A stretch of 64,000 nucleotides of DNA from Chloroflexia bacterium (GCA_041082245.1 JBDOIE010000015.1:18589-82588); one strand, 5' to 3'; positions 1-18,170 are shown, numbered from the stretch's first letter. Numbers and translations: made by a program. Notes: generated by a model not told the origin, from the sequence alone.

Positions 1-535
1 CTTCCTTGCCGCGCGCAATGTGATGGGGGGTACCGTGGTGGGCCGAGCGATCTATACCCTGATGCGCACGGTCCTGAACCTGTGGCGTTCCGTAGAGCCG
101 CTCATCCAGGCCCTGATCTTCGCCTCCTGGGTCGGCTTTGGCCCGTTTGCGGGAGTACTCGGGCTGGGCGTCTGGAACATCCCCAACGTGGCCAAACTCT
201 TCTCGGAGGCGATCGAGGACATCGATACGGGTCCGGTGGAAGCGATCACCGCGACCGGCGCCACGCGCCTGCAAACACTTTTCTACGCGGTCGTCCCGCA
301 GCTGCTCCCGGCATTCCTCGCGTTTGTCCTTTATCAGTGGGATATCAGCATCCGGATGTCGACGGTCATCGGCTTTGTGGGTGGAGGCGGCCTGGGGCAG
401 CAGTTCCTGGCCTGGGTCGGGTTGGACGAGTACGGGAAAGCGGCTACCGCGCTTTGGGCGATCGTGGCGATGGTCTGGAGCATGGATTATGTGAGCGCCC
501 GGGTGCGCGAACGGTTCATCGGTGTGACGCGCTAG
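1..535 (+). CDS. phnE: Phosphonate ABC transporter permease PhnE-like, C-terminal part (5' end outside the window)
   Basis: ORF 20..535 is open to the left window edge. Hydrophobic permease C-terminus with a PhnE-type motif (EAIDTGPVEAITATGATRLQTLFYAVVPQLLP). Motif recognition only. Confidence 0.6.
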   Translation, partial: FLAARNVMGGTVVGRAIYTLMRTVLNLWRSVEPLIQALIFASWVGFGPFAGVLGLGVWNIPNVAKLFSEAIEDIDTGPVEAITATGATRLQTLFYAVVPQLLPAFLAFVLYQWDISIRMSTVIGFVGGGGLGQQFLAWVGLDEYGKAATALWAIVAMVWSMDYVSARVRERFIGVTR

Positions 536-566
536 CGTTGCGGTGCGTTACGAAATGGAGTAGCAA

Positions 567-599
567 GCGAGGGGACAGGTCTCGCACCTGTCCCCTCGC
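567..599. terminator. Perfect 14-bp inverted repeat (GCGAGGGGACAGGT / ACCTGTCCCCTCGC, 5-nt loop) between convergent phnE and the UPF0182 gene. Putative bidirectional terminator hairpin with no clear U-tract.
   Basis: Read directly from the sequence; it lies in the 107-nt gap between two converging stop codons. Confidence 0.4.
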
Positions 600-641
600 A
601 ATGTGCGCCCGGAAAGCGGTGCATGCCGGAGACCCTGCCGG

Positions 642-3491
642 TTACTGTTGCTCGGCCAGCCTCACGAGTTCCTCCAGGTCTGCCTGCAGCTGTTCCATCT
701 CTCTGCCGTAGCATGCCCAGTCCGCCCTGCGAAGGCATTCCTGCGCCGCGCGGTAGTGGTCAGCCGCCGAGCGCGCGACCTCCCCCCATCGGCGCTCCTG
801 CGCGGGCGGCGTTCCTGCGCCGAGCACCTGACGAAGCGCGTCCTCGAGCGTTTCCCCCATCGCGATCTGGTTTCCGTAGGCAACGATCACGCGGCGGAGC
901 TCCGGAATTTGCCCCGTCTCGGACTGCAGATAGAGCGGGCGTACGTAAAGCAGATTGTGCTCGATCGGAACCACGAGCATGTTCCCCAGGATGACCTGCG
1001 ATCCGTGCTGGTTCCAGAGCGTCAACTGCTGGGAGATGTAGGGGTGCTGGTTCGTCCGGGCCTCGATCTGGAACGGCCCATAGACCAGGCTCTGCTTCGG
1101 AAACTTGAACACGCCCAGCCGGCCATAGTCGTCCAGGTCGCATTGCACGTGCATCCAGGCGATCATGTTGTCCCGGTTCACAGGGGTGAACGGCACCATC
1201 AAGAAGAACTCTTCCTGTTCCCAGCCGGGAAGCCGCATGATCACGTAGTAGCTGTCGATGTACCGCTGTTCGCCGAGATAGGTCTCTTGGGCGAATTGCC
1301 AGGCATCTTCCTTGTTGTAGAAGACCTGTGGGTCACGCATATGATAGGTAGAGTACACGTAAGTCTGTGCGCGAAAGATCTCCTCCGGATAGCGCCAGTG
1401 TTCCCGCAGGCCCGCGGGCATCTCGGATACCGGACGGAAAAGCGTCGGAAAGATTGCGGCGTAGGTCTGCACCACCGGATCGTTTGGGTCCACGATATAG
1501 TAGGTCGTCGTGCCTTCGTATGGATCGATGACCACCTTGACCGCATTTCGGATGTAGTTCAACGACCCGTACGGTTCCGAATACGGATACATATTGCTCA
1601 CGGTGTAAGCGTCCTGAAGCCAGTAGATCTTCCCGTCCAGGATGACGGGATAGGGGTCATAATCGTAGGCGAGGAAAGGAGCGATGGTCTCGACCCGCTC
1701 CTGCACCGTCCGGTAGAACAGGATACGGCTCTCGGAGGTCACATAGTTGCTCACCAGGATCGGCAGGTCGCCAAAGCGAAGTGCGAAGGCCAGCCGCCGC
1801 AGGAATCCCCCCAGAGGGACACCGTCTTTCCCCTGATAGTGGGTGTAGACGTTCTCGTCCCCCTTCGGATAGTCGAACTCTTCTGCCGCGGTATTCACGA
1901 TGACATAATTGGTAGTTTCCTCTCCGATGTAGATCTCCGGCCGGTCCAACCGAAGCTCGTCGAAGGTGTGCCGCGGCGGGATATCTCGAAGATAGAAGCA
2001 GGGTTGGCCCTCCGTGCAGATCTCGTTGACCGGGCTCATGACGACGCCGTACCCGTGGGTGTACACGAGGTGCCGGTTCTGCCAGGTCTGGGCCTGTTCC
2101 GGCAGCTCATCGACAGAGAGCTCCCGCACAGCCAGCTCTACCTCCCGGTATTTCCCGCCAAGGCGGTAGCGCTCGACGTCGATATCGTGGAAATTGTAAT
2201 AGAGCCGGATCTCCTGTAGCTGGCTGTAGGTATCGTAGAGGGGCCGGTGGTCCCACAGCCGGATGTTCTCCAGCGTGCCCGCGTTGCGGTTGGCCGTTTC
2301 CAGGGTCAGCGTGCCCGTGACAGGATACTCGACTTCCTCCACGTGCTCCAGGCCGTAAGCCGCGAGTGTGTATCGGATGGCGTGCTCGATGTAGGGCCGC
2401 TCCATAGCGAGCTCACTGGGACGCACACGGAAGGTCTGCACGAGGGCAGGGTAAATCACCCCCATGACGAGCAGACAGGCGAGCCAGGTCCCGCCGCCGG
2501 CAGCCAGCAATGCCCACCGACGCCGCCACAGGTTCACGAGGAGCAACACCGCGCATCCGATGACGATCCATGTCAGCACGGCGTACGCCGGCCATCGGGC
2601 ATGCACATCCGTGTAGCTTGCGCCGAAGGCGGCGCCGTGCCGCGAGTACAGCAGCTGGTAGATCTTGAGCCGGTAATCCCACGCTTTGACCAGGAGCAAC
2701 AGGACACCGAGCAGCGACAGGTGGCCGAGCGCCGGTGCAGGGAAACTCCTGCGGCGCAGGGCAACGACGTAGATCAGCCCGGTCACCACCAGGGCGACTC
2801 CTGTGAGCCACAACAGCATGGCCTTCAGGTCCAGCAACAGCCTGAGGCGGAACAGGTAGAAGCCGAGATCCCGGCCGAACAGGGGATCGCGTGTGCCGAC
2901 CTCTACCCCGTGCAGGAACCGCAGCACGCGCATCCATTTCCCTTGCGCAACGCTACCGAACACGATCCCCGCGATGGCCGCAAGGGTCCACAGGATCGGG
3001 ATCGCCGCACGCCCACTGCGCCTCGGAAGCGGTGTCCACTCCTCTGTGCGCTCTCGCTGCCGGAGCAATGCATGCAAGGCTCCCTGCCAGGAGAAGCCCA
3101 GGAACAGGCTCGAGGGCAGGGCCGCGCCGAAGAACAACAGGAAGCGCGTAAGGACCTGCGTGCGGAACACCTCCCCGTAGCCCAGGTGCCCGAACCAGAG
3201 GGCATCGGTGTAGATGCGTACGCCCAGGGTAAGTGCAAGGACGAGCAGCAGCAGCCCTAGTGCGCCCACGATCCATGGCCAGAACCGCGCGGGCCGGCCT
3301 GGGCCACCCCACACCCCACGCCGACGGAGGTAGATACCGAGGGCGATCAGATCGGCCAGCACGAACAGCCCGATCAACACACCCCAGGCGCGAGAGGAAA
3401 TCAGGATCAAGAGGACAATAGCCACAATGACCCCAAGCGCGATGATCACACCCTGACGCTTTCCACGCATAGCGATCTCCTCCTCATCCAT
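642..3491 (-). CDS. UPF0182-family large membrane protein. N-terminal multi-TM region plus a large C-terminal domain.
   Basis: ORF 642..3599 on the minus strand. Start refined to the ATG at 3491 (MDEEEIAMRGKR), which has a GGGAGG-like RBS and an 8-nt overlap (ATGGATGA) with the upstream M28-like gene. Seven or more hydrophobic helices are followed by a conserved soluble region (YYVIMRLPGWEQEEFFLMVPFTPVNRDNMIAWMHVQ). Family assigned from memory. Confidence 0.6.
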   Translation of the reverse strand: MDEEEIAMRGKRQGVIIALGVIVAIVLLILISSRAWGVLIGLFVLADLIALGIYLRRRGVWGGPGRPARFWPWIVGALGLLLLVLALTLGVRIYTDALWFGHLGYGEVFRTQVLTRFLLFFGAALPSSLFLGFSWQGALHALLRQRERTEEWTPLPRRSGRAAIPILWTLAAIAGIVFGSVAQGKWMRVLRFLHGVEVGTRDPLFGRDLGFYLFRLRLLLDLKAMLLWLTGVALVVTGLIYVVALRRRSFPAPALGHLSLLGVLLLLVKAWDYRLKIYQLLYSRHGAAFGASYTDVHARWPAYAVLTWIVIGCAVLLLVNLWRRRWALLAAGGGTWLACLLVMGVIYPALVQTFRVRPSELAMERPYIEHAIRYTLAAYGLEHVEEVEYPVTGTLTLETANRNAGTLENIRLWDHRPLYDTYSQLQEIRLYYNFHDIDVERYRLGGKYREVELAVRELSVDELPEQAQTWQNRHLVYTHGYGVVMSPVNEICTEGQPCFYLRDIPPRHTFDELRLDRPEIYIGEETTNYVIVNTAAEEFDYPKGDENVYTHYQGKDGVPLGGFLRRLAFALRFGDLPILVSNYVTSESRILFYRTVQERVETIAPFLAYDYDPYPVILDGKIYWLQDAYTVSNMYPYSEPYGSLNYIRNAVKVVIDPYEGTTTYYIVDPNDPVVQTYAAIFPTLFRPVSEMPAGLREHWRYPEEIFRAQTYVYSTYHMRDPQVFYNKEDAWQFAQETYLGEQRYIDSYYVIMRLPGWEQEEFFLMVPFTPVNRDNMIAWMHVQCDLDDYGRLGVFKFPKQSLVYGPFQIEARTNQHPYISQQLTLWNQHGSQVILGNMLVVPIEHNLLYVRPLYLQSETGQIPELRRVIVAYGNQIAMGETLEDALRQVLGAGTPPAQERRWGEVARSAADHYRAAQECLRRADWACYGREMEQLQADLEELVRLAEQQ

Positions 3492-4632
3492 CCTGGGCCG
3501 GCCTCCCGGTGTCGAGCGTGTCCAGGCCCCTGGCGACGCTGGCCGCGAGCCGGACGGCCTGTTCCAGCACTTCGGGTTCCACCTGGGAGGATGTATCACT
3601 GGGCCAGTGCCAGTTGGCCGGAAGCCCCTTTTCGAGCGTCATCAGGCTTACCGCCCGGTAACCCCGTGCCAGTGGAACCAGCGCGCTCGTGCTCCCGGCG
3701 CGAAAAGGCCGAAAGGCCGCCTTTGCCTCACTGCGGCGGGCCAGGTCGATGAGCGTCGCATCCGACCGGTGCGGCCAGAGTACGCCCTCCGCCGTGACGA
3801 CTGTGAGTTCCCCCCGGCCCACGCTCTCCAGGTTCACGAAGAACGCCTCGTCCCGCGGAAACGGGTAACGGCCCAGGAAATGCTGTATCCCCTGGGGCGC
3901 GGACTTACCGCACCCGGTCGCGACGAACCACAGGGCCGTATGGTCGAGGTCGTCCAATTCTTCCGCCAGCCACAGGAGTACGGCGACTCCGGAAGCGTTG
4001 TCGTTTGCCCCGGGAACGTGCGGCATCACCGCCTCGCGGTGTACGAGGAGGAGGAGAAACAACGCGAGGTACCCCGCCGGAATACCCTGCAAGTAAAGCG
4101 GCCACGGACTTCCCGTCGCCCAATGCAGGACCATCAGCACCGGAACACATACCAGCGCCACGGCCAGGAGCAGGAAAGAACACCGGATGCTGCGGACCCA
4201 CCGGGGGTGGAACAGGAGTGCAGCGCGCGCCGTATCCAGGTTCGCGAAGAAGATCAGGTGTCGCCTCTGTTCACGGCTGGGTGGCCGTGTGCCGACCACG
4301 TTCTGGCTCTTTCCCCAGGCAAGCCACGAAGAGACAACCGGAAAAGACAGCATCTCCAGCACAAAACCGGTTAGTACGAGCAGAGCCAGAGCGAGTCCCG
4401 CCGGGCGAGCAACGCGGTAGAGCAGGGGCGACAAGGAACCGAGCAGGCAGAGCAGCCCGCAGGGCAAACTGGACGTGGTCACGGCGCGAAACGGCTGTAC
4501 TTCCACCGCCAAGCCGCCTTCCCGCATCCTTGCGTTGACATAAGCGGCAGCCTGGGCCTCCGCCGCGGACGTCGACGGGCGAGGGCCGATGGTGTCGGCA
4601 AGGAACCGCACGATTTCCATCGCGTCCCGCAT
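3484..4632 (-). CDS. M28-family (Zn-aminopeptidase fold) membrane protein. The catalytic-type region is interrupted by about 5 TM helices, and the Glu-Glu motif is not evident.
   Basis: HVPGANDNASGVAVLLWLAEEL matches the M28 Asp/Zn-binding motif. Hydrophobic helices lie between the N-terminal segment and this motif. Translationally coupled to the UPF0182 gene. Confidence 0.5.
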   Translation of the reverse strand: MRDAMEIVRFLADTIGPRPSTSAAEAQAAAYVNARMREGGLAVEVQPFRAVTTSSLPCGLLCLLGSLSPLLYRVARPAGLALALLVLTGFVLEMLSFPVVSSWLAWGKSQNVVGTRPPSREQRRHLIFFANLDTARAALLFHPRWVRSIRCSFLLLAVALVCVPVLMVLHWATGSPWPLYLQGIPAGYLALFLLLLVHREAVMPHVPGANDNASGVAVLLWLAEELDDLDHTALWFVATGCGKSAPQGIQHFLGRYPFPRDEAFFVNLESVGRGELTVVTAEGVLWPHRSDATLIDLARRSEAKAAFRPFRAGSTSALVPLARGYRAVSLMTLEKGLPANWHWPSDTSSQVEPEVLEQAVRLAASVARGLDTLDTGRPAQDG

Positions 4633-4806
4633 CGTCCGCTCCTTTCTGGACTATACGGCCCACGCGGCGATCGGTTGCATGCCTCCGCGGCCCCCACCGT
4701 ACGTTCGCTCCGATCCCCTCACCGACGTTACGGCCCCTGGATCGCGCTCGGTGATAGGCCTCGCGCCTTCGAAAACGCACGGGCATATCGCACGAAGCGA
4801 GAGGAA

Positions 4807-5889
4807 TCATGGAGCGGCTGCGAGCGCTTCCTTGAGCACCTGGATCGCCGGGATGGATGTCGGGTCCGCACGGTAGAGCATCGCGAGGTAATAGCTCGTT
4901 GCATCGCCCAGCAGCACAGATGTGAGCATCTGGGCCAGGTCCCCACAGCCGCGGCTCGTGACCACACGACAGGGGGTACCGCCTTCCTCGAAGATGCGGC
5001 GGGTGATGTCCATCCGCAGCCGGTTGCGAGGGTGATCGGCATCCGAGGCGAGCAGGATCGCCCGCACGTTCGAAGCAAGTCGCGGAGGGTAAGCTGTGCC
5101 CGCGACAACGTTGTGGTCCATTTCCGGGAGCTCGTCGCACATCGCCCAGGACTTGCTGTTCTCGTTGAACTGCCCCTTCCAGCGGCGGGCGACCGGAGCC
5201 AGAAGCCCCGAACCGCAGATGAACGGAAGATGGCCGTAGAGCCAGCGCGCCAGCTCCTTAGCTGGATTCCGTTCTTCGGGGATCTCGGGCCGTACCTCCA
5301 GGAGGAGCTCGTTCAACAGGGAGACCGCTTCCTCCACCTGAGGCGTAGGGTCGGGAAGAAGGTCCAACCGCACGAGCACGCCCAGGAGCAGGAGAAAGCT
5401 GTATCCCAGCGCCTCGCGCGGCTGAGCGAGGTAATCGAACTGGAGCACATCGATTCCCCAGTCACGGGCGCGTCTCGCGAGCTCCCCGCCCGTCGTGACC
5501 GCGATCAGCGTCGCGCCGCGCCGTCGCGCCTCCTCCGCTGCAGAAAGCGTTTCCTCGGTGTTCCCCGAGTAGCTGGACGCGATGACCAGCGTATGCCGGC
5601 CCGCGAAGGCGGGAAGCCCGTAATCGCGATGTACCGTTACCGGCAAGGATGACCATCGTTCCGCGAGCGCGCGGACCAGGTCCCCTCCGATGGCCGATCC
5701 GCCCATACCGGCGATCACCACGGCGCGGGGTGGTGCGGGCGTAGCCGGTGGGGACCAGCTACGGACAAGCTCCCAGGCACGGCGGCACTGGTTCGGCAGG
5801 TCGAAAAGGCGCGCACCTGCCCGGGAGCGGTCGATCTCCAGGTAAGTGTTGGGGTCATCGAGATCGGGTAGGGGAAGAATCGTCGCCAC
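4807..5889 (-). CDS. Bifunctional phosphoglucose/phosphomannose isomerase (SIS-domain PGI/PMI family)
   Basis: VVIAGMGGSAIGGDLV and IASSYSGNTEETL SIS motifs. Start placed at an in-frame GTG (5889) preceded by AAGGAGG with a 5-nt spacer. Any longer N-terminal extension would have no RBS. Confidence 0.75.
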   Translation of the reverse strand: MATILPLPDLDDPNTYLEIDRSRAGARLFDLPNQCRRAWELVRSWSPPATPAPPRAVVIAGMGGSAIGGDLVRALAERWSSLPVTVHRDYGLPAFAGRHTLVIASSYSGNTEETLSAAEEARRRGATLIAVTTGGELARRARDWGIDVLQFDYLAQPREALGYSFLLLLGVLVRLDLLPDPTPQVEEAVSLLNELLLEVRPEIPEERNPAKELARWLYGHLPFICGSGLLAPVARRWKGQFNENSKSWAMCDELPEMDHNVVAGTAYPPRLASNVRAILLASDADHPRNRLRMDITRRIFEEGGTPCRVVTSRGCGDLAQMLTSVLLGDATSYYLAMLYRADPTSIPAIQVLKEALAAAP

Positions 5890-5929
5890 ACCATCCTCCT
5901 TCGATCGGGCGATCTCCTGGCTGGCCGAG

Positions 5930-5958
5930 AGTATAGCACAGGGGTGCGGCCGGGTCAA
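5930..5958 (-). promoter_or_regulatory. Sigma70-like promoter for the PGI/PMI gene: TTGACC, 17 bp, TATACT (TG-extended), read on the minus strand
   Basis: Hexamers and spacing read directly from the sequence. It sits about 40 nt upstream of the GTG start at 5889. Confidence 0.45.
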
Positions 5959-5962
5959 GCGT

Positions 5963-5991
5963 TTGCGCCTGCCCCGTAAACCTGGTACAAT
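5963..5991 (+). promoter_or_regulatory. Sigma70-like promoter for parA: TTGCGC, 17 bp, TACAAT (TG-extended)
   Basis: Hexamers read directly. It lies back-to-back with the PGI promoter, about 35 nt upstream of the parA ATG. Confidence 0.45.
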
Positions 5992-6026
5992 AGGGCCGAC
6001 CGGTAGCGCTGGTGGGACATCGCCCG

Positions 6027-6827
6027 ATGGGATATACATTTGCCCTGGCCAATCAGAAAGGCGGCGTCGGCAAGACGACGACGGCGGTTAACCTGAGTGC
6101 CTTCCTGGCAAGGCAAGGGTACCATGTCCTCCTCGTAGACGGTGATCCCCAGGGAAATGCGACGACAAGCCTGGGAATCGCAAAGTCGAGGCTGCGGGCT
6201 ACCCTTTACGAAGCACTCCTGGACCACCTGCCCCTGGATCGGGTGATTGTCCCGACCGGACGTTCGGGCCTCGATCTTGTTCCAGCGACGGTGCAGCTTG
6301 CCGGGGCCACAGTGGAGCTGCTGGCACAGGAAGGGCGGGAACAGCGGCTGGAGCAGGTGCTGCGGCCGTACCGTGAGCTGTACGATTTCGTGTGCATCGA
6401 TGCCCCGCCTTCGCTCGGGCTGTTGACCATCAATGCACTTGTGGCTTCGCAGGGAGTGTTGATCCCGCTCCAGTGCGAGTACCTCGCGATGGAGGGCCTG
6501 GCGCAGCTTCTGGGGACAGTGCGGCGCGTCCAGCAGCGCCTCAATCCGGGATTGCAGCTGATCGGGATCGTGATGACGATGTACGACAGCCGCACGCGCC
6601 TGTCCCTGGAAGTTGTCCAGGAAGTGCAGCGCCATTTGCCTGGCCGAATGTTCCGCACGGTGATCCCGCGCACGGTGCGCCTGGGCGAAGCACCGAGCCA
6701 TGGCCGAACGATCTGGGAGTACGACGCCCACAGCTACGGGGCGCTTGCGTACGAACGGCTCGGGCAGGAGTTCCTGGCGCGCTTGGGGTTCACCGTCCCG
6801 GAACGGAAGGAGGGGGCGCATGTCTGA
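6027..6827 (+). CDS. parA: ParA/Soj chromosome-partitioning ATPase
   Basis: Deviant Walker A (ALANQKGGVGKTTTAVNLSAFLA) and DGDPQGN motif. ATG at 6027 chosen; the ORF track begins at a GTG at 6012. Confidence 0.85.
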   Translation: MGYTFALANQKGGVGKTTTAVNLSAFLARQGYHVLLVDGDPQGNATTSLGIAKSRLRATLYEALLDHLPLDRVIVPTGRSGLDLVPATVQLAGATVELLAQEGREQRLEQVLRPYRELYDFVCIDAPPSLGLLTINALVASQGVLIPLQCEYLAMEGLAQLLGTVRRVQQRLNPGLQLIGIVMTMYDSRTRLSLEVVQEVQRHLPGRMFRTVIPRTVRLGEAPSHGRTIWEYDAHSYGALAYERLGQEFLARLGFTVPERKEGAHV

Positions 6828-10396: not shown

Positions 10397-12511
10397 ATGG
10401 TAGGCTTGGGCAGTCATCCCGGGCAATCCAGCTGCTGGAAGGCCGGTAGCCGCTGCTTCTGGCCGAACGCCCTTTCGCGGTACCGGGTGTTGCCTCTTGT
10501 GCTGCTAGTGACCGCGATCTTTGTGGTGTGCGCGTACCAGTTCGACCGCATCTACACGGTGGATGCGGGTCGATACGCGGATCGTCCCTTCCTGCGAGGT
10601 TTTCATGATCGGGAGGGAGTCGACGGGCTCGAGCCTTTCCGCTGGACGGGTGCGAGGTCGGAAGTGATTTTCCCGGGGGTAGGGGCGCGGGACCGGTGGC
10701 TGCTGGTGCGGCTGGGCGGGCACGAGTACGCGGGGTTAGCGGACCGGACGGTGCGGATCGCGGTCAATGGCACTGTGATGAGCGAGGTCGTGGTGTCGAA
10801 GGGCTGGCAGGCGTACCGTTTCTGGATTCCGGCCAGCGAGCAACATCTGGGCAGCGTACGGGTTACGCTCGAAACGACGCCGTTTGTGCCAGCGGAGGTC
10901 GCTGGGGGCGAGGATGATCGCCTTGTCGGGGTGAAGGTAAGCCGCGTGGAGCTCGTGCCTATGAGCAATGGATTCTCGGCCGGCTGGCCGGCCCTCGTAC
11001 CGCTCTTGTGGTGCCTGCTCCTTGTGGCAGGGATTTACGCAGGGCTGAGCACCTGGGTCGTTTCTTGGCGAGGGGCTGCCGTGGTTGCCCTGCTTGTGGC
11101 AGCCGCTGTTGCCTGCGCGCTCAGCGTGTACCGGCTTCAGGTGGCGGCCTACCTGCCACGGCTCGTGGCAGGGATGCTGCTGGGCCTGGCGCTCGCCGCA
11201 GCTTCGGGCCGCCTAGCGCGCCTCCTGTACCGGTGGAGTGGCGTGGCCGCATCCGATCGGGACGTACGGTGGCTTCAGGCGATCTTTCTGGTTGGCTTCT
11301 GGCTGAAGGCCTGGGGCCTGCTCTACCCCAACAGTGTCGCGATCGACCTGAAGTGGCATCTCTGGCAGGCACAGCGAATCGTGGATGGAGAGCTCGCCAC
11401 GATCTACAAACCCGGGGCGCTCGCGTTCTGGATCGCGCCGGACCAGTGGGGCGGCAGCCTGGAAGCGGCCGTGCCCTATTCACCGTTCTACCACATCACT
11501 GCCGCAGCGTTCTTCTTCCTTCCATGGCCCCCGTACGTCACGGCGAACCTTCTGAGCGTTTTCCTGGATACAAGCCGCGGCTTCTTGCTCTACGGGCTCG
11601 CGAGAAAACTGGGTATGGGGAACCGCGCAGGTATCTTTGCGGCGCTGCTGTACGGCCTTTTCCCGACGACGTTCCTCCTCCATTCCTGGGGAAACGTGCC
11701 GACGACGACCGGGCTCTGGTGGGCGATTGCCGCTACGTGGTACCTTGTGGCGGGGTGGGAAAAGATGAAGCGCTGGACCGTCTGGTCCGGGCTTGTCGTC
11801 TTGCTCCTGGGCACAATGCTCTATTATAGCGTGATCGCGGCGTTCATCGTCGTCTTTTTCGTGCTCTTGCTCCTTGGGCTCTCGTGGAGCCGTAGCCTCG
11901 AAGTACGCCCGCTCGGGAGGGTCGGGCTTGCCCTGGTGGTTGCTGTAGGGCTGGCGATGGCGATCTACTACTGGCAGTACGTTCCCCCGCTCTTGCTGCT
12001 CTTGCGCTCCGGGAGACTGGGAGCAGGCCTGGGAAGCACGGCCCAGTCCGTTCCGGTGACCGTGTTCCTCTGGCGGACACTCGTGAGGATCGCTTCGCTG
12101 CGGTACGGGCTCCTCTGGCCGGCAGTGCTGGCCTTCGTGGGGCTCTGGGCGGGACGCGGCTGCTTGCGGAATCCCCTGACGCGCTGGCTGACATGGTCCT
12201 GGTTCCTGACAGGGCTGCTGTTCCTGGCAGTCGATTACCGGATCCAGCTCGTCGATAAGCATATCTTCTTCCTGATGCCGCTTCTCGCGCTGTGGGGCGG
12301 GGTCGCACTCGATTGGTTGCTGGGCAGCCGGTGCTGGGGGAAAGCAATAGTGTGGGCGACCGCTCTAGCGCTTGCGGTGGCCTCACTGCATACCTGGCTG
12401 TACCGGCTTTCGAACGTACAGCAAGAATGGACCGAAGCAGATATCCGGATTGTCGGCGAACGGCTGGCCCCGCTGATGGTCGCCGGCATCCAGCGGCTCT
12501 TGGGGCTGTAG
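10397..12511 (+). CDS. Large polytopic membrane protein (paralog A). N-terminal TM anchor plus a roughly 130-aa extracytoplasmic module, then 12 or more TM helices. GT-C-like?
   Basis: ATG lies 3 nt after the GH57 stop. Hydrophobicity profile. The N-terminal module shares conserved blocks with ORF 15882..18170 (FRWTGARSEVIFPGVG / YRWTRAEASVRLPEVG; LVGVKVSRVELVP / LGVAVERVELRAV). Confidence 0.5.
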   Translation: MVGLGSHPGQSSCWKAGSRCFWPNALSRYRVLPLVLLVTAIFVVCAYQFDRIYTVDAGRYADRPFLRGFHDREGVDGLEPFRWTGARSEVIFPGVGARDRWLLVRLGGHEYAGLADRTVRIAVNGTVMSEVVVSKGWQAYRFWIPASEQHLGSVRVTLETTPFVPAEVAGGEDDRLVGVKVSRVELVPMSNGFSAGWPALVPLLWCLLLVAGIYAGLSTWVVSWRGAAVVALLVAAAVACALSVYRLQVAAYLPRLVAGMLLGLALAAASGRLARLLYRWSGVAASDRDVRWLQAIFLVGFWLKAWGLLYPNSVAIDLKWHLWQAQRIVDGELATIYKPGALAFWIAPDQWGGSLEAAVPYSPFYHITAAAFFFLPWPPYVTANLLSVFLDTSRGFLLYGLARKLGMGNRAGIFAALLYGLFPTTFLLHSWGNVPTTTGLWWAIAATWYLVAGWEKMKRWTVWSGLVVLLLGTMLYYSVIAAFIVVFFVLLLLGLSWSRSLEVRPLGRVGLALVVAVGLAMAIYYWQYVPPLLLLLRSGRLGAGLGSTAQSVPVTVFLWRTLVRIASLRYGLLWPAVLAFVGLWAGRGCLRNPLTRWLTWSWFLTGLLFLAVDYRIQLVDKHIFFLMPLLALWGGVALDWLLGSRCWGKAIVWATALALAVASLHTWLYRLSNVQQEWTEADIRIVGERLAPLMVAGIQRLLGL

Positions 12512-14044: not shown

Positions 14045-15736
14045 GTGGACGAAACCAACCACACGCCGCTTTCACGTCAGGTTGCGGGAGCGATGTTCTG
14101 GAACGTGATGCTCTTCCCGCTCAAGTTTGTGGTCGGCGTGGCCGTGGGCATCGTCGTGCCGAACCTCCTGGGGCTGGAGCGCTACGGTCTTTACATTCTG
14201 CTTGTTTCTTTGGCAAGTACCCTGGGAAGCTATGCGGACCTGGGGATGGAGCGCGCTTTGCCACGCTACATTCCCGAGGTCGCGCACCATTTCGGACGCG
14301 CGGGACTGCGCCGCTTCCTGCGCGAAGTCGTCGTGGTCAAACTGGGCTTGCTGCTCCTGCTCCTCCTGGGCCTGCAGCTGTTCTCCGGTCCGCTCCAGGG
14401 GTATGTGCGGGGCAACGAATTGCGCAAGATCGCCTCGATCGACCTTCAGCTGCAGCAGGAAAGCGATCCGGTGCGACGCGAACGCCTGCTTGCTGAGCGG
14501 AGTGCGCACGAGCAGCTGATCGCCCGGTTGGAGCGCGAGGGCCGGCTGTACCTCTGGACAATCGGCGCAATGCTCCTTCTGGGGGCGGTTTTCGATGTCT
14601 TGACGCGCCTCCTCGTGGCCTACTTCAGGCAACGGGCCACAAACGCGATCGATGTGGGGTTGGCAGTGCTGCAACCGCTGCTCATCATCGTGTTGGTCCT
14701 GGCCGGCTGGGACATGAAAGGGATCCTGGTTGCCCTGGTCGTCACACCGATCGTCGGGGTGGCGCTTGCCGCCTGGCGTGCACGGCAGGCGATGGTGGCG
14801 CTGCCGGAAGGCACCGCAACGGCAGATCGGTGGTGGCATCGCGTCTGGAGACGTTTCCTTGCCTTCTCGGCGATCTCCTACCTGATCAACCTCAGCACAT
14901 GGCTGTACGACCTCGCCTTCCTGAGCCTGGTCACGGCGGCATACCTGGGCACAGCGGACGTAGCGGCCCTGGGGGTGGCAAGCAAGTTTGTGGGCCTCTT
15001 TCTGACCTACCTGATGGTACCGTTGAGCGGGATCCAGGTACCGCTCTTCGCCCATCTGTACGCGCGGAAAGGCCTGCAGGAGCTCCAGCAGGCGTTCGAG
15101 GTCCTGAGCCAGTTCCTGCTCCTCCTGCTTGTGCCCACGGGCGTCGGACTTGCGCTGCTGTCCCCGTCTCTGGTTCCGCTGCTCTACCCCGGGTTTCCCC
15201 GGAGCACGGGCGTACTCGTGATCATCCTCATCGCGGCGATGTTCCTGGAAACGCTGATCGGGACACCCCAGAACATCCTGCAGGTCTACGAGCGCTACGG
15301 GATCGTGGTCCTCGGCCGGCTCCTTGCTCTGGTCGTGGTACCGCTGCTTTACCTATGGGTGCCGCGGTACGGGCTGATCGGCGCAGTCGGGGCGGCGAGT
15401 GTGGCGCGCGTGGCTTCGCGGGCGGTAACTTTCTGCTACAGCCTGCGGGCTTTCCCGCTGCACTTTCCCTGGCGGTTTGCCGCGCGGGTGAGTTGTGCCA
15501 CGGCGACCATGCTGGCCGTCCTCTACCCCCTGACCCTATGGTTGAGGATCACCCAGATCGGGAGCGGCTGGGGAGGGCGCCTCGCCGTGCTGGCGAAGGA
15601 CCTGGGCCTCACAGCGCTCGGAGGTGTAGTGTTCTTCGGCGTGCTCCGCCTGCTCGGCGGTCTCGACCCGGCGTTGCGGAATCGTCTGAACGAACTGCGT
15701 TTCCCGCTGAAAGAGCGGATCCTGCGTTTCCTCTAG
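14045..15736 (+). CDS. MOP/Wzx-like polysaccharide (lipid-linked oligosaccharide) flippase
   Basis: About 14 TM helices with the typical polysaccharide-biosynthesis-protein architecture. Start is a GTG at 14045 with a GGAG/GAGG RBS; an alternative ATG lies at 14093. Confidence 0.55.
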   Translation: MDETNHTPLSRQVAGAMFWNVMLFPLKFVVGVAVGIVVPNLLGLERYGLYILLVSLASTLGSYADLGMERALPRYIPEVAHHFGRAGLRRFLREVVVVKLGLLLLLLLGLQLFSGPLQGYVRGNELRKIASIDLQLQQESDPVRRERLLAERSAHEQLIARLEREGRLYLWTIGAMLLLGAVFDVLTRLLVAYFRQRATNAIDVGLAVLQPLLIIVLVLAGWDMKGILVALVVTPIVGVALAAWRARQAMVALPEGTATADRWWHRVWRRFLAFSAISYLINLSTWLYDLAFLSLVTAAYLGTADVAALGVASKFVGLFLTYLMVPLSGIQVPLFAHLYARKGLQELQQAFEVLSQFLLLLLVPTGVGLALLSPSLVPLLYPGFPRSTGVLVIILIAAMFLETLIGTPQNILQVYERYGIVVLGRLLALVVVPLLYLWVPRYGLIGAVGAASVARVASRAVTFCYSLRAFPLHFPWRFAARVSCATATMLAVLYPLTLWLRITQIGSGWGGRLAVLAKDLGLTALGGVVFFGVLRLLGGLDPALRNRLNELRFPLKERILRFL

Positions 15737-15881: not shown

Positions 15882-18170
15882 ATGCGGGAAAGGCTCACGC
15901 GCACAGAGGCTGGCTCGATTGCCCGCGCACGCATACTGTGGCCGGTCCTCCTCCTTGTGGCGGGCGTAGCGGGTCTCCTTGTGGCGTTCCAGATGCGTCC
16001 GCCCGTTGTCGTACGGGTGGGGGAAGCGGCATCCGAGCCTCTGCTCAAGAATTTCCACGCTCCCGAAGCGACGGGGGGCCGCGCGTACCGCTGGACGCGC
16101 GCCGAAGCGAGCGTTCGGTTGCCCGAGGTGGGCCTGCCCGCGCCCTGGGAACTCGTGCTGTACCTGTCCGGACAGCCTGATCGAACCATCCCGCTGTTTC
16201 TCGCCGTGGACGGGGACGAGGTGGGGCGGCTGGACATCGCTTCCAGGAGCGGTGTCTATTCCCTCGTTCTGTCCGGTAAGTCTTCTCCCTTCGCTCATTC
16301 CGTCGAATTGGAGCTGCGTACGTCGGCGTTCTCTCCCCCCAACGACCCCCGGGAGCTCGGAGTGGCCGTGGAGCGGGTCGAACTGCGGGCGGTCGGCCAC
16401 GGGCCCCGGGGGATTGCGCTGGGGCCGTCCCTGCTGTTCCTGGGACTCTCGTTGCTGTCCTACGCGGGCTTCGCGCGCCTGAGCGGGAGCCGTCTGGGCG
16501 GACTTGTCGCTGGGGGGATGGTACTGGGGTTTGCCTGCGTGGGGGTGCAGAGGTACTGGCCCACACAGCAATTCCGCCCGTTCCCGTGGGCCGCGGTGAT
16601 CGGCTCGGTCTCTCTCGCAGGCCTCGTGTACGGACCCGCGGTGCGTCGCGATCTTGCGGCGATGTCCCGTACAATGGCGGCCGGCCGTCTCGCGCTCCCC
16701 CGGGCAAGGACGATAGCCACCTCCCGGGGATGGCTCTGGGCAATGGCCGCGGGTGCGTGCCTGGTCCTTGGCCTTCACCTTGCGGCCCCGTGGCTGCCTG
16801 TGGAACAGGGTCCGTACGAGAACCTGTCCTGGGGAGTCCGTTTCTACGGGCGCCTTCCAGTCGGGTGGCGCTGGGGCGGGGTACTCGCGGCGGCCGCGGT
16901 CTGTCTGGGGTCCGGGCCGTTGGCCCGTGCCCTGCTCGGGCTCTCTTTCCGGACGCGCCATTACCGGGTACGGAGTGCTCTCGTGGCAGCGGCGCTGGCC
17001 GCTTTGCTTGCAATAGCCTGTTTCTGGCTGCTGCGTACCCGCTGCTTCTATGGCGACTGGGAAGAGATCGTGGAGGACATTGCGCTGGGAGCGCTCTGGC
17101 GGGAACGGAGTCCGGTCGATTTCCTGCTCCGGGCTGGCTTGGGGCGGGCGCTAGCGGCGCAATGGCCCGCCTGGCTGCGGGTAGCTCCGCCCCTCTCGCG
17201 ATGCCTTGTGCAGCCGGTGGCGGCAACGGACGCTTTTCCGGCTCTGCGCGGTGCGCTTGGCGTACTCAGCTGCATTGTTGGCGGGGTGTTCGTCGCGGGA
17301 GCCTCAGGGCTCGGCGCGGCGCTGTTCCCACAGCGGCTGGAGCGTTCGTTCTTTGTGCTCCTCCTGGTCGCACAGGGGACGGCGTTGCTCTTTGCAGGCT
17401 ACATCGAGATGTACACGATGGTTACGGCGGCGCTGGCCGTGTTTCTGCTCTCCGGGGTCCTCGCGTTACAGCGCCGTATCGGGTATGTGTGGTCCGTGTG
17501 GGCTTTCGCGCTGGCCGTGGTGACGCACCTGCAGGCGGTGTACCTGGCGCCCGCGCTGCTCTATGTGGTGTGGAATGCGGTTGCAGAAGGCCGCCGAGCA
17601 CGTATCCGGGCGGTGCTCGGTGCGGTGCTTGCGGGACTGCTGCTGCTTGCCCTTGTATCGGGAATCTTCCTCTTGCTCGGCTATGACCCAGGGAGGTTGA
17701 CCTGGGCATCCCGCGGGCTCGGGGGCGTGGACGGGGTTTTCCTCAAGCACCTCCTGCGGCCAGCCCCAGAAGCGCACGAACCGTACCCGATCCTGTCCTG
17801 GGAACACTTGCGCGCTGTACTGAACCAGCAGCTACTGGCCGCGCCGCTTTCGCTGTTTGCCCTGGTCGCAACGGTAGCCGCTTTCGGGCGGCGGTGGCGA
17901 GCGCTCCTTGCGGACCGGATCCTGGTCTTTCTGCTGCTCGCTACGGTGCCTGCCCTTCTCTTCACCTGGGTATACAACCCGGACCTGGGGGCGCGCCAGG
18001 ACTGGGACCTCCTGGCGCCACCGTTCGTGCTCCTGACGGCGACCGCGGCCTACCTGATCCTTGGGCGCGTGCGGCCGGCCGGGGCGCGCTTGAGCGGGGC
18101 GATCGTCTGGCTATCCGTTTCCCTCCTGCATACCCTTTCCTGGCTCTGGCTCAACCACCTTGGGCTGTAG
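15882..18170 (+). CDS. Large polytopic membrane protein (paralog B) sharing the N-terminal extracytoplasmic module of paralog A
   Basis: ATG at 15882. A TM anchor and a conserved module are followed by 14 or more TM helices. See paralog A for the shared motifs. Confidence 0.5.
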   Translation: MRERLTRTEAGSIARARILWPVLLLVAGVAGLLVAFQMRPPVVVRVGEAASEPLLKNFHAPEATGGRAYRWTRAEASVRLPEVGLPAPWELVLYLSGQPDRTIPLFLAVDGDEVGRLDIASRSGVYSLVLSGKSSPFAHSVELELRTSAFSPPNDPRELGVAVERVELRAVGHGPRGIALGPSLLFLGLSLLSYAGFARLSGSRLGGLVAGGMVLGFACVGVQRYWPTQQFRPFPWAAVIGSVSLAGLVYGPAVRRDLAAMSRTMAAGRLALPRARTIATSRGWLWAMAAGACLVLGLHLAAPWLPVEQGPYENLSWGVRFYGRLPVGWRWGGVLAAAAVCLGSGPLARALLGLSFRTRHYRVRSALVAAALAALLAIACFWLLRTRCFYGDWEEIVEDIALGALWRERSPVDFLLRAGLGRALAAQWPAWLRVAPPLSRCLVQPVAATDAFPALRGALGVLSCIVGGVFVAGASGLGAALFPQRLERSFFVLLLVAQGTALLFAGYIEMYTMVTAALAVFLLSGVLALQRRIGYVWSVWAFALAVVTHLQAVYLAPALLYVVWNAVAEGRRARIRAVLGAVLAGLLLLALVSGIFLLLGYDPGRLTWASRGLGGVDGVFLKHLLRPAPEAHEPYPILSWEHLRAVLNQQLLAAPLSLFALVATVAAFGRRWRALLADRILVFLLLATVPALLFTWVYNPDLGARQDWDLLAPPFVLLTATAAYLILGRVRPAGARLSGAIVWLSVSLLHTLSWLWLNHLGL

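Follow-up and report, generated by a model that had tools for sequence, protein, structure and literature searches.

We analysed a 64,000-nucleotide stretch of DNA from a Chloroflexia bacterium (GCA_041082245.1, JBDOIE010000015.1:18589-82588), hereafter the window, in which the interval 642-4632 is filled by two co-directional minus-strand open reading frames (ORFs) encoding an M28-like protein and then a UPF0182 protein. Directly upstream of the M28-like gene, here and at all other loci carrying the block, lies the block's first gene, encoding a bifunctional phosphoglucose/phosphomannose isomerase-type protein (PGI/PMI). The region is well supported as a three-gene minus-strand operon, in the order PGI/PMI, polytopic M28-like gene and UPF0182, specific to one uncultured Chloroflexia lineage. 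The sole promoter-like site within 400..6200 is a sigma-70-like element upstream of PGI/PMI, which we list as a possible promoter of the three genes; the evidence is weak because about 0.8 such sites are expected by chance. Our scan yielded no convincing terminator inside the block, the candidates falling within coding sequence and at chance level, and an Rfam scan of the window returned no matches. The ATG of the M28-like gene at 4632 is preceded at 7 nucleotides (nt) by AAGGAG. Coordinates of these and the other features discussed below are collected in Table 1.

Table 1 Features of the PGI/PMI, M28-like and UPF0182 block, in the direction of transcription (positions in the window; TM, transmembrane; AF2, AlphaFold2; aa, amino acids)
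Feature	Position	Strand	Basis
Sigma-70-like promoter candidate, TTGACC-17-TATACT with TG, upstream of PGI/PMI	5930..5958	-	motif scan
Bifunctional phosphoglucose/phosphomannose isomerase-type gene (SIS + bact-PGI_C)	4807..5886	-	PF10432, E = 5.6e-47
M28-like pseudo-peptidase gene, polytopic, 382 aa	3484..4632	-	PF04389, AF2, Foldseek, dN/dS
TM hairpin 1, residues 55-94 (helices 55-74 and 76-94), after first M28 beta-strand	4351..4470	-	AF2, hydropathy
Degenerate HxD motif A130-N131-L132-D133 (family AH[LY]D[ST])	4234..4245	-	alignment
TM hairpin 2, residues 146-202 (helices 146-173 and 183-202)	4027..4197	-	AF2, hydropathy
GANDNASG motif, residues 208-215; bridging Asp D211 retained	3988..4011	-	alignment
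G242-K243, replacing catalytic Glu and metal-ligand Glu (family EE)	3904..3909	-	alignment
E269, replacing Asp metal ligand (NLESVG; family NLDxVG)	3826..3828	-	alignment
H342 (NWHWPSDT), C-terminal His metal ligand, retained	3607..3609	-	alignment
ATGGATGA: M28 stop TGA (3486..3484) and upstream in-frame ATG (3491..3489)	3484..3491	-	sequence
GAGGAGGAG Shine-Dalgarno (3485..3477), 6-nt spacer, ATG 3470..3468	3468..3485	-	orthologue comparison
UPF0182 gene, 942 aa from supported start	642..3470	-	PF03699, E = 6e-285
Clade-specific N-terminal extension of UPF0182, residues 1-60	3291..3470	-	comparison of 21 clade and 39 other proteins
7-TM core of UPF0182, residues 63-347; YTDALWF motif at 3212	2430..3284	-	AF2, motif
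Large extracytoplasmic domain (about 348-890) and C-terminal helical tail (895-941)	648..2429	-	AF2; topology from bioRxiv 10.1101/2025.11.14.688347

The M28-like protein matches Pfam Peptidase_M28 at 44.8 bits (cutoff 21.3; E = 1.6e-11) over residues 206-365 only, because two membrane hairpins interrupt its N-terminal half. An AF2 model built with 64 homologues (predicted local distance difference test, pLDDT, 95.6; predicted template modelling score, pTM, 0.93) shows an M28 alpha/beta domain, and a Foldseek search of the PDB placed the Bacillus subtilis aminopeptidase BSAP (6hc6) first with E = 2e-14, followed by SGAP, AAP and glutaminyl cyclases. The M28 relationship put forward in an earlier, first-pass annotation of this DNA is therefore supported, and the motif named there, HVPGANDNASG, is present at residues 205-215. 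A search of NCBIfam gave nothing more specific for either of the two proteins. Four long hydrophobic helices, on which the AF2 model and hydropathy agree, form the two hairpins, each inserted in a loop of the catalytic domain. Hairpin 2 borders the active-site rim, its insertion point falling exactly between HxD and the bridging-Asp motif GAxDNxSG, and terminates in a family-specific HRE motif (residues 198-200); the two hairpins are parted by two M28 beta-strands carrying the degenerate HxD motif (ANLDT). An insertion of about five TM helices ahead of HVPGANDNASG had been proposed; the insertion itself is confirmed, but the helices number four and are arranged as two separate hairpins rather than as one block.

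None of 64 family members has an N-terminal signal or TM segment, and lysine plus arginine average about 5.0 on the domain-side juxtamembrane segments versus 1.2 at the hairpin tips. Members from Coriobacteriia and their relatives (P0048, P0054, P0063, P0066 and P0097) are longer, at about 560-660 aa with the catalytic set intact, and carry a low-complexity, highly charged, disordered stretch of about 240 aa, rich in Asp, Glu and Arg, inserted after the GANDNASG helix and ahead of the EE strand. From the lack of a signal peptide, the basic residues on the domain side and this charged insert we infer that the M28 domain is cytoplasmic, with the rim of its active site against the membrane.

To assess the active site, metal-ligand positions were set by motif alignment to YwaD and the family rather than from coordinates. 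The family consensus (AH[LY]DS, HRE, PGANDNASG, TG[CA]EExG, NLDNVG and NWHWxTDT) comprises the full M28 set plus HRE; the corresponding motifs of the window protein are ANLDT, HRE, PGANDNASG, TGCGKSA, NLESVG and NWHWPSDT. Relative to the family's H-D-D-E-E-D-H it thus carries the changes H131N, E242G, E243K and D269E. The co-catalytic metal ligands (His, Asp, Glu, Asp, His) are incomplete, D211 and H342 being kept, H131 and E243 gone and D269 changed to Glu; D133 is also retained. The general-base Glu that precedes the Glu ligand is absent, position 242 being Gly where all 31 members outside the clade described below have Glu. The change from His to Asn at the ligand position 131 occurs only in the window protein, and the retained H342 aligns with the WHT His of the glutaminyl cyclase-like protein 8xfv. 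The first-pass annotation had failed to find the Glu-Glu pair, and rightly so: the family's TGCEExG reads TGCGKSA here, and the HxD His has been lost as well and one Asp replaced by Glu. HMMER paired VHREA with the AHYDS of YwaD, which would make HRE the true HxD motif; this pairing was rejected on the canonical strand order NV.G...AH[LY]DS at 107-133 and on family-wide conservation. Judged from the aligned residues, a normal two-metal centre has probably been lost in the window protein, and peptide hydrolysis is not expected of it.

The protein belongs to a TM-hairpin M28 family whose members share full-length homology (30-46% identity), the same two-hairpin architecture and the HRE motif, and which occurs in Actinomycetota, Bacillota, Chloroflexota, Deinococcota, Hadarchaeota and others, the databases saying only 'M28 family peptidase'. 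In a neighbour-joining tree of 64 family members the UPF0182-linked Chloroflexia clade is monophyletic. All seven canonical M28 residues are kept in 31/31 sampled members outside this clade, which are presumably active and which in our sample never lie beside UPF0182. Inside the clade E242 is kept in only 5 of 32 members, all in one subclade; the remaining 27 lack the general-base Glu and have K, N, H, A, Q, R or G in its place, differing by subclade. Such a distribution indicates that the general base has been lost repeatedly within the clade. Additional ligand losses are scattered across it (the window protein, P0006, P0005, P0022/P0030 and P0025), and the positions relaxed inside the clade yet at least 87% conserved outside it cluster beside the ligands (S134, E242, N270, N340 and W341).

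Against a 76%-identical orthologue the M28-like gene has a ratio of nonsynonymous to synonymous substitution rates (dN/dS) of 0.177 overall and 0.155 for the soluble domain; the same genome pair gives 0.185 for the UPF0182 TM region and 0.082 for PGI. The M28-like gene is a maintained pseudo-enzyme, a pseudo-peptidase rather than a pseudogene, because purifying selection on it persists. The sole degenerate member found outside the UPF0182-linked clade is the divergent P0116 (GCA_034436615.1, L148 6001-7167), which lacks all seven M28 residues and goes unrecognised by precomputed Pfam. Its neighbours encode a 772-aa PPC-domain protein and DNA polymerase III delta; with no UPF0182 adjoining, it was rejected as a second case of decay combined with UPF0182 linkage.

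Certain TM-M28 genes adjoin lipid-related genes encoding GDPD, PAP2 phosphatases and acyltransferases (L084 320-2865, L086 7271-8119 and L091 161-5004), and in L091 the GDPD gene overlaps the M28 start by 4 nt. These neighbours hint that active TM-M28 members may act at the membrane surface, in a pattern too inconsistent to call conserved.

The UPF0182 protein matches the Pfam family PF03699 at 947.7 bits over profile positions 5-770 of 770, and NCBIfam PRK02509 at 831.6 bits, under the equivalog cutoff of 949. Its AF2 model (pLDDT 83.6) comprises a seven-helix core at 63-347, a mixed alpha/beta domain at 378-890 and C-terminal helices. No solved relative was found by sequence search, and by fold the best match has E = 0.15. 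What sets the protein apart is its N-terminal extension, consisting of a basic N-terminus, two extra TM helices (2-25 and 29-50) and then YLRRRG, modelled at a low pLDDT of 53-67; with it the clade encodes a 9-TM variant of UPF0182. The extra hairpin is present in 21/21 clade UPF0182 proteins versus 0/39 others: ahead of YTDxLWF the clade has 85-90 residues with three TM helices, the 39 others 17-57 residues with one. A sharp break is also seen in the database search, where 23 clusters at or above 57% identity have 942-956 aa and full coverage and the rest, at or below 54%, have about 890-925 aa. The second extra helix has an intramembrane acidic residue in 16/21 clade members (E; in the window D, within LAD), and many also have one in the first; in the M28 hairpins we identified no matching conserved basic residue.

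The start of UPF0182 bears on how the two genes may be expressed. The first-pass annotation read the junction as an overlap of the M28 stop with the UPF0182 start, ATGGATGA, and took this to imply stoichiometric co-expression. The string is indeed present, and the NCBI gene call P0121 (949 aa) starts at its ATG, but the orthologues do not support this start. Within the junction sequence (...CAGGATGGATGAGGAGGAGATCGCTATGCGT...), the start at 3470 gives the N-terminus MRGKRQG, which matches every orthologue (M-x-x-K/R-x-R-R-Q...), and at the orthologous loci the UPF0182 start is in every one an ATG or GTG 5-9 nt past GGAGG. In L096 (UPF0182 76% identical) the junction is GCGGAGGAGATAGCGATG, nearly the same from Shine-Dalgarno to ATG as the GAGGAGGAGATCGCTATG of the window, the ATG at the upstream position being absent from L096. 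In L147 (M28 76% identical) the M28 stop and the homologous MRRKRTG start overlap as ATGCGTAG, and in L133 there is an ATGA start/stop overlap at the homologous start. The functional UPF0182 start is probably the ATG at 3470 and not that of ATGGATGA; with the start there, the two genes lie 13 nt apart instead of overlapping by 8. The GAGGAGGAG Shine-Dalgarno begins inside the M28 stop codon, and at seven loci the distance from M28 stop to UPF0182 start is -8, -4, +8, +9, +11, +12 or +13 nt. A gap of 13 nt is plausibly still tight enough for coupled translation; coupling through the ATGGATGA overlap depends on the unsupported start, and stoichiometric expression would not follow from an overlap in any case.

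The order PGI/PMI, TM-M28, UPF0182 was found at all 12 distinct clade sequences (gene lists or tblastn), the M28 proteins being 48-99% and the UPF0182 proteins 61-76% identical. The block is present at every sampled locus with a UPF0182 at least 61% identical, the flanking genes differ each time, and four more M28/UPF0182 pairs were found on equal-sized contigs. Conservation of the adjacency across Actinobacteria and Chloroflexota, which the first-pass annotation had raised, does not hold, the arrangement being confined to one Chloroflexia lineage. UPF0182 lay within 8 kb of none of 35 full-length TM-M28 loci from GTDB genomes, and at about 40 metagenomic UPF0182 loci (at or below 55% identity) there was no M28 or PGI neighbour. 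P0035, P0036, P0041 and P0116 likewise show no UPF0182 linkage, and an apparent UPF0182 match in L015 was rejected as an amidase joined by a read-through ORF. When neighbours were clustered at 38 TM-M28 and 47 UPF0182 loci, neither family had a conserved partner outside the clade. At seven metagenome loci that lack the M28-like gene (L108, L113, L115, L117, L125, L127 and L129) a small predicted membrane-protein gene lies directly upstream of UPF0182 on the same strand; these ORFs encode 111-257 aa with the motif ...SPLDAIPDFIPVIGEMDD...

Neither non-catalytic M28 homologues nor UPF0182 proteins are new as kinds. The window protein shares its fold with the secreted M28 zinc aminopeptidases BSAP/YwaD (6hc6), Streptomyces griseus SGAP and Vibrio/Aeromonas AAP (Foldseek E from 2e-14 to 1e-9), as well as their motif order of N-terminal helices, NV.G strand, HxD, GAxDNxSG, EE, NxD and C-terminal His. 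Those enzymes are soluble and exported, whereas the window protein has no signal peptide, contains four inserted TM helices, is predicted to face the cytoplasm and has lost the HxD His together with both Glu residues, general base and metal ligand. In eukaryotes, nicastrin of gamma-secretase, nicalin and the transferrin receptor carry non-catalytic, membrane-tethered M28-type domains that serve as binding or scaffolding subunits of membrane-protein machines. GPAA1 is another non-catalytic M28-fold subunit of a eukaryotic membrane complex (PMC4111754). Proteins of the nicastrin/nicalin type differ from the window protein in having a luminal or extracellular domain and membrane segments that lie outside the fold (one TM helix, or a C-terminal bundle in GPAA1), and there is no specific sequence relationship.

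UPF0182 is reportedly universal in Actinobacteria, including M. tuberculosis (Rv3193c), and widespread elsewhere. The actinobacterial proteins (Mycobacterium smegmatis MSMEG_1959, M. tuberculosis Rv3193c, Corynebacterium glutamicum cg0896 and C. diphtheriae DIP0733) belong to the same Pfam family as the window protein and (PMC6123952; bioRxiv 10.1101/2025.11.14.688347) share with it the 7-TM core, the large extracytoplasmic domain and the C-terminal helical tail; the window clade differs in its two added N-terminal TM helices and its upstream TM-M28 gene. The only functional proposal for UPF0182 that we found comes from a 2026 preprint (bioRxiv 10.1101/2025.11.14.688347), which describes phenotype correlations in M. 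smegmatis between UPF0182 knock-downs and ftsH, yccA and a small TM protein, and similar ones with ftsH and/or yccA in C. glutamicum and Bifidobacterium breve. An AlphaFold3 model in the same preprint has a tetrameric periplasmic dome of UPF0182 binding YccA and the small TM protein, and its authors suggest that UPF0182 takes part in regulating FtsH and in the quality control of membrane proteins. The actinobacterial partners put forward so far, YccA and the small TM protein, do not include an M28 homologue. The window contains no FtsH signature.

We tentatively favour the reading, to which we give somewhat less than even chances, that the M28-like protein is a non-catalytic membrane partner of UPF0182. 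It is the simplest functional account of why, in one lineage, gene linkage, a relaxed M28 active site and a new UPF0182 TM hairpin coincide. The widespread TM-hairpin M28 family, which keeps its catalytic residues outside the lineage, had its general-base Glu replaced many times inside it; the M28-like gene would be co-transcribed with UPF0182, and its product may act as an adaptor or scaffold that docks through its TM helices. The pathway might be membrane-protein quality control, on account of the FtsH/YccA link reported for actinobacterial UPF0182. A non-catalytic, membrane-embedded M28 homologue acting with UPF0182 had already been proposed from the first look at the sequence; its loss of catalytic residues and its membrane embedding are borne out, and the joint action is proposed from clade-wide synteny and the co-occurring N-terminal extension of UPF0182. 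In a more specific form of the partnership, an active cytoplasm-facing M28 aminopeptidase would have been recruited as an obligate non-catalytic subunit of UPF0182 quality control, docked on the co-gained N-terminal hairpin; this version we regard as rather unlikely.

Several observations weigh against a partnership. The linkage arose once, in one clade, so that the correlations between adjacency, decay and extension amount to a single evolutionary event, and nearly everywhere else each family occurs without the other. PGI/PMI, with no evident functional link, shares the block, and its presence there means that unrelated genes can ride in it. The M28-UPF0182 gap is 31-191 nt in several orthologues, and P0116 lost its catalytic residues without a UPF0182 neighbour. 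The TM hairpins are the least conserved regions in both proteins (identity 0.44-0.51 and 0.35 versus 0.55-0.73 elsewhere), on which ground they were rejected as a conserved interface. The membrane is predicted to separate the soluble domains of the two proteins, and the FtsH link comes from an Actinobacteria preprint, not from Chloroflexia. A mirror-tree correlation between M28 and UPF0182 distances (r = 0.86) was rejected as evidence since it reflects shared phylogeny.

The restriction of the adjacency to one clade, the gaps of up to 191 nt, the poorly conserved TM hairpins and P0116 would suit a non-catalytic M28-like protein unrelated to UPF0182, within an inherited operon of unrelated genes in which decay and extension are unrelated changes of the lineage. 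We hold this to be a real possibility, though one we would not bet on. PGI/PMI is conserved to the same degree without any plausible link and is often nearer the M28 gene (24-42 nt in L081, L083 and L084), and the wider TM-M28 family has no conserved neighbour. Such an account sits less well with the persistence of the block at 48-59% M28 identity as both flanks reshuffle in every sampled genome, with a Shine-Dalgarno that overlaps or abuts the M28 stop in most orthologues, or with the exact coincidence of three independent lineage-specific features (linkage, active-site relaxation and UPF0182 extension).

It is improbable that the protein is still an enzyme, with a remodelled site (D133, D211, E269, H342, H198-R199-E200 and H205), perhaps mononuclear as in glutaminyl cyclase, acting on a membrane-associated substrate. 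D211, H342, an acidic residue at 269 and the HRE beside the active-site loop do remain, mononuclear M28-fold glutaminyl cyclases are among its structural neighbours and the soluble domain is under purifying selection. However, both Glu residues that persist in glutaminyl cyclases, metal ligand and general base, are replaced in the window protein (by K243 and G242, respectively); the replacement of residue 242 varies by subclade, which argues against a new defined chemistry, and HRE and the shell residues are relaxed in the clade too. Its loss of catalytic residues, more extreme than in any of its closest relatives, might suggest that the ORF is decaying as a pseudogene or arose from misassembly. 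This reading is so improbable as to be effectively refuted already by an intact 382-codon ORF with a good Shine-Dalgarno, four near-identical copies (at least 99%), of which the three other than the window's own come from independent sequencing-run assemblies, a dN/dS of 0.18 and the AF2 pLDDT of 95.6.

If the more specific form of the partnership, recruitment as an obligate subunit, is correct, the M28-like protein would be a bacterial counterpart of nicastrin or nicalin and the first genome-encoded partner to pin down the role of UPF0182. For a barely characterised family, a lineage that ties UPF0182 firmly to one specific membrane protein supplies a definite interaction to test, with the caveat that the whole case depends on a single uncultured clade and on inference. 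The TM-hairpin M28 family represents an undescribed architecture, probably a cytoplasm-facing aminopeptidase of the membrane surface present in many phyla, and the clade provides a clean natural example of the passage from enzyme to pseudo-enzyme, with independent losses of the general base under continuing purifying selection. In a limited literature search we found no prior description of the two-hairpin polytopic M28 architecture, of repeated catalytic-base loss within a single clade or of the operon link to a modified UPF0182, nor any experimental work on members of the TM-hairpin M28 family.

Elsewhere in the window, three long plus-strand ORFs have no Pfam match at E <= 1e-5. Two of these, of 563 and 762 aa, lie at 14045-15736 and 15882-18170. 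The third, of 704 aa (10397-12511), comes right after a GH57 branching-enzyme gene and is probably a real conserved gene, since in L081 a 707-aa gene, also without a Pfam match, holds the same position.

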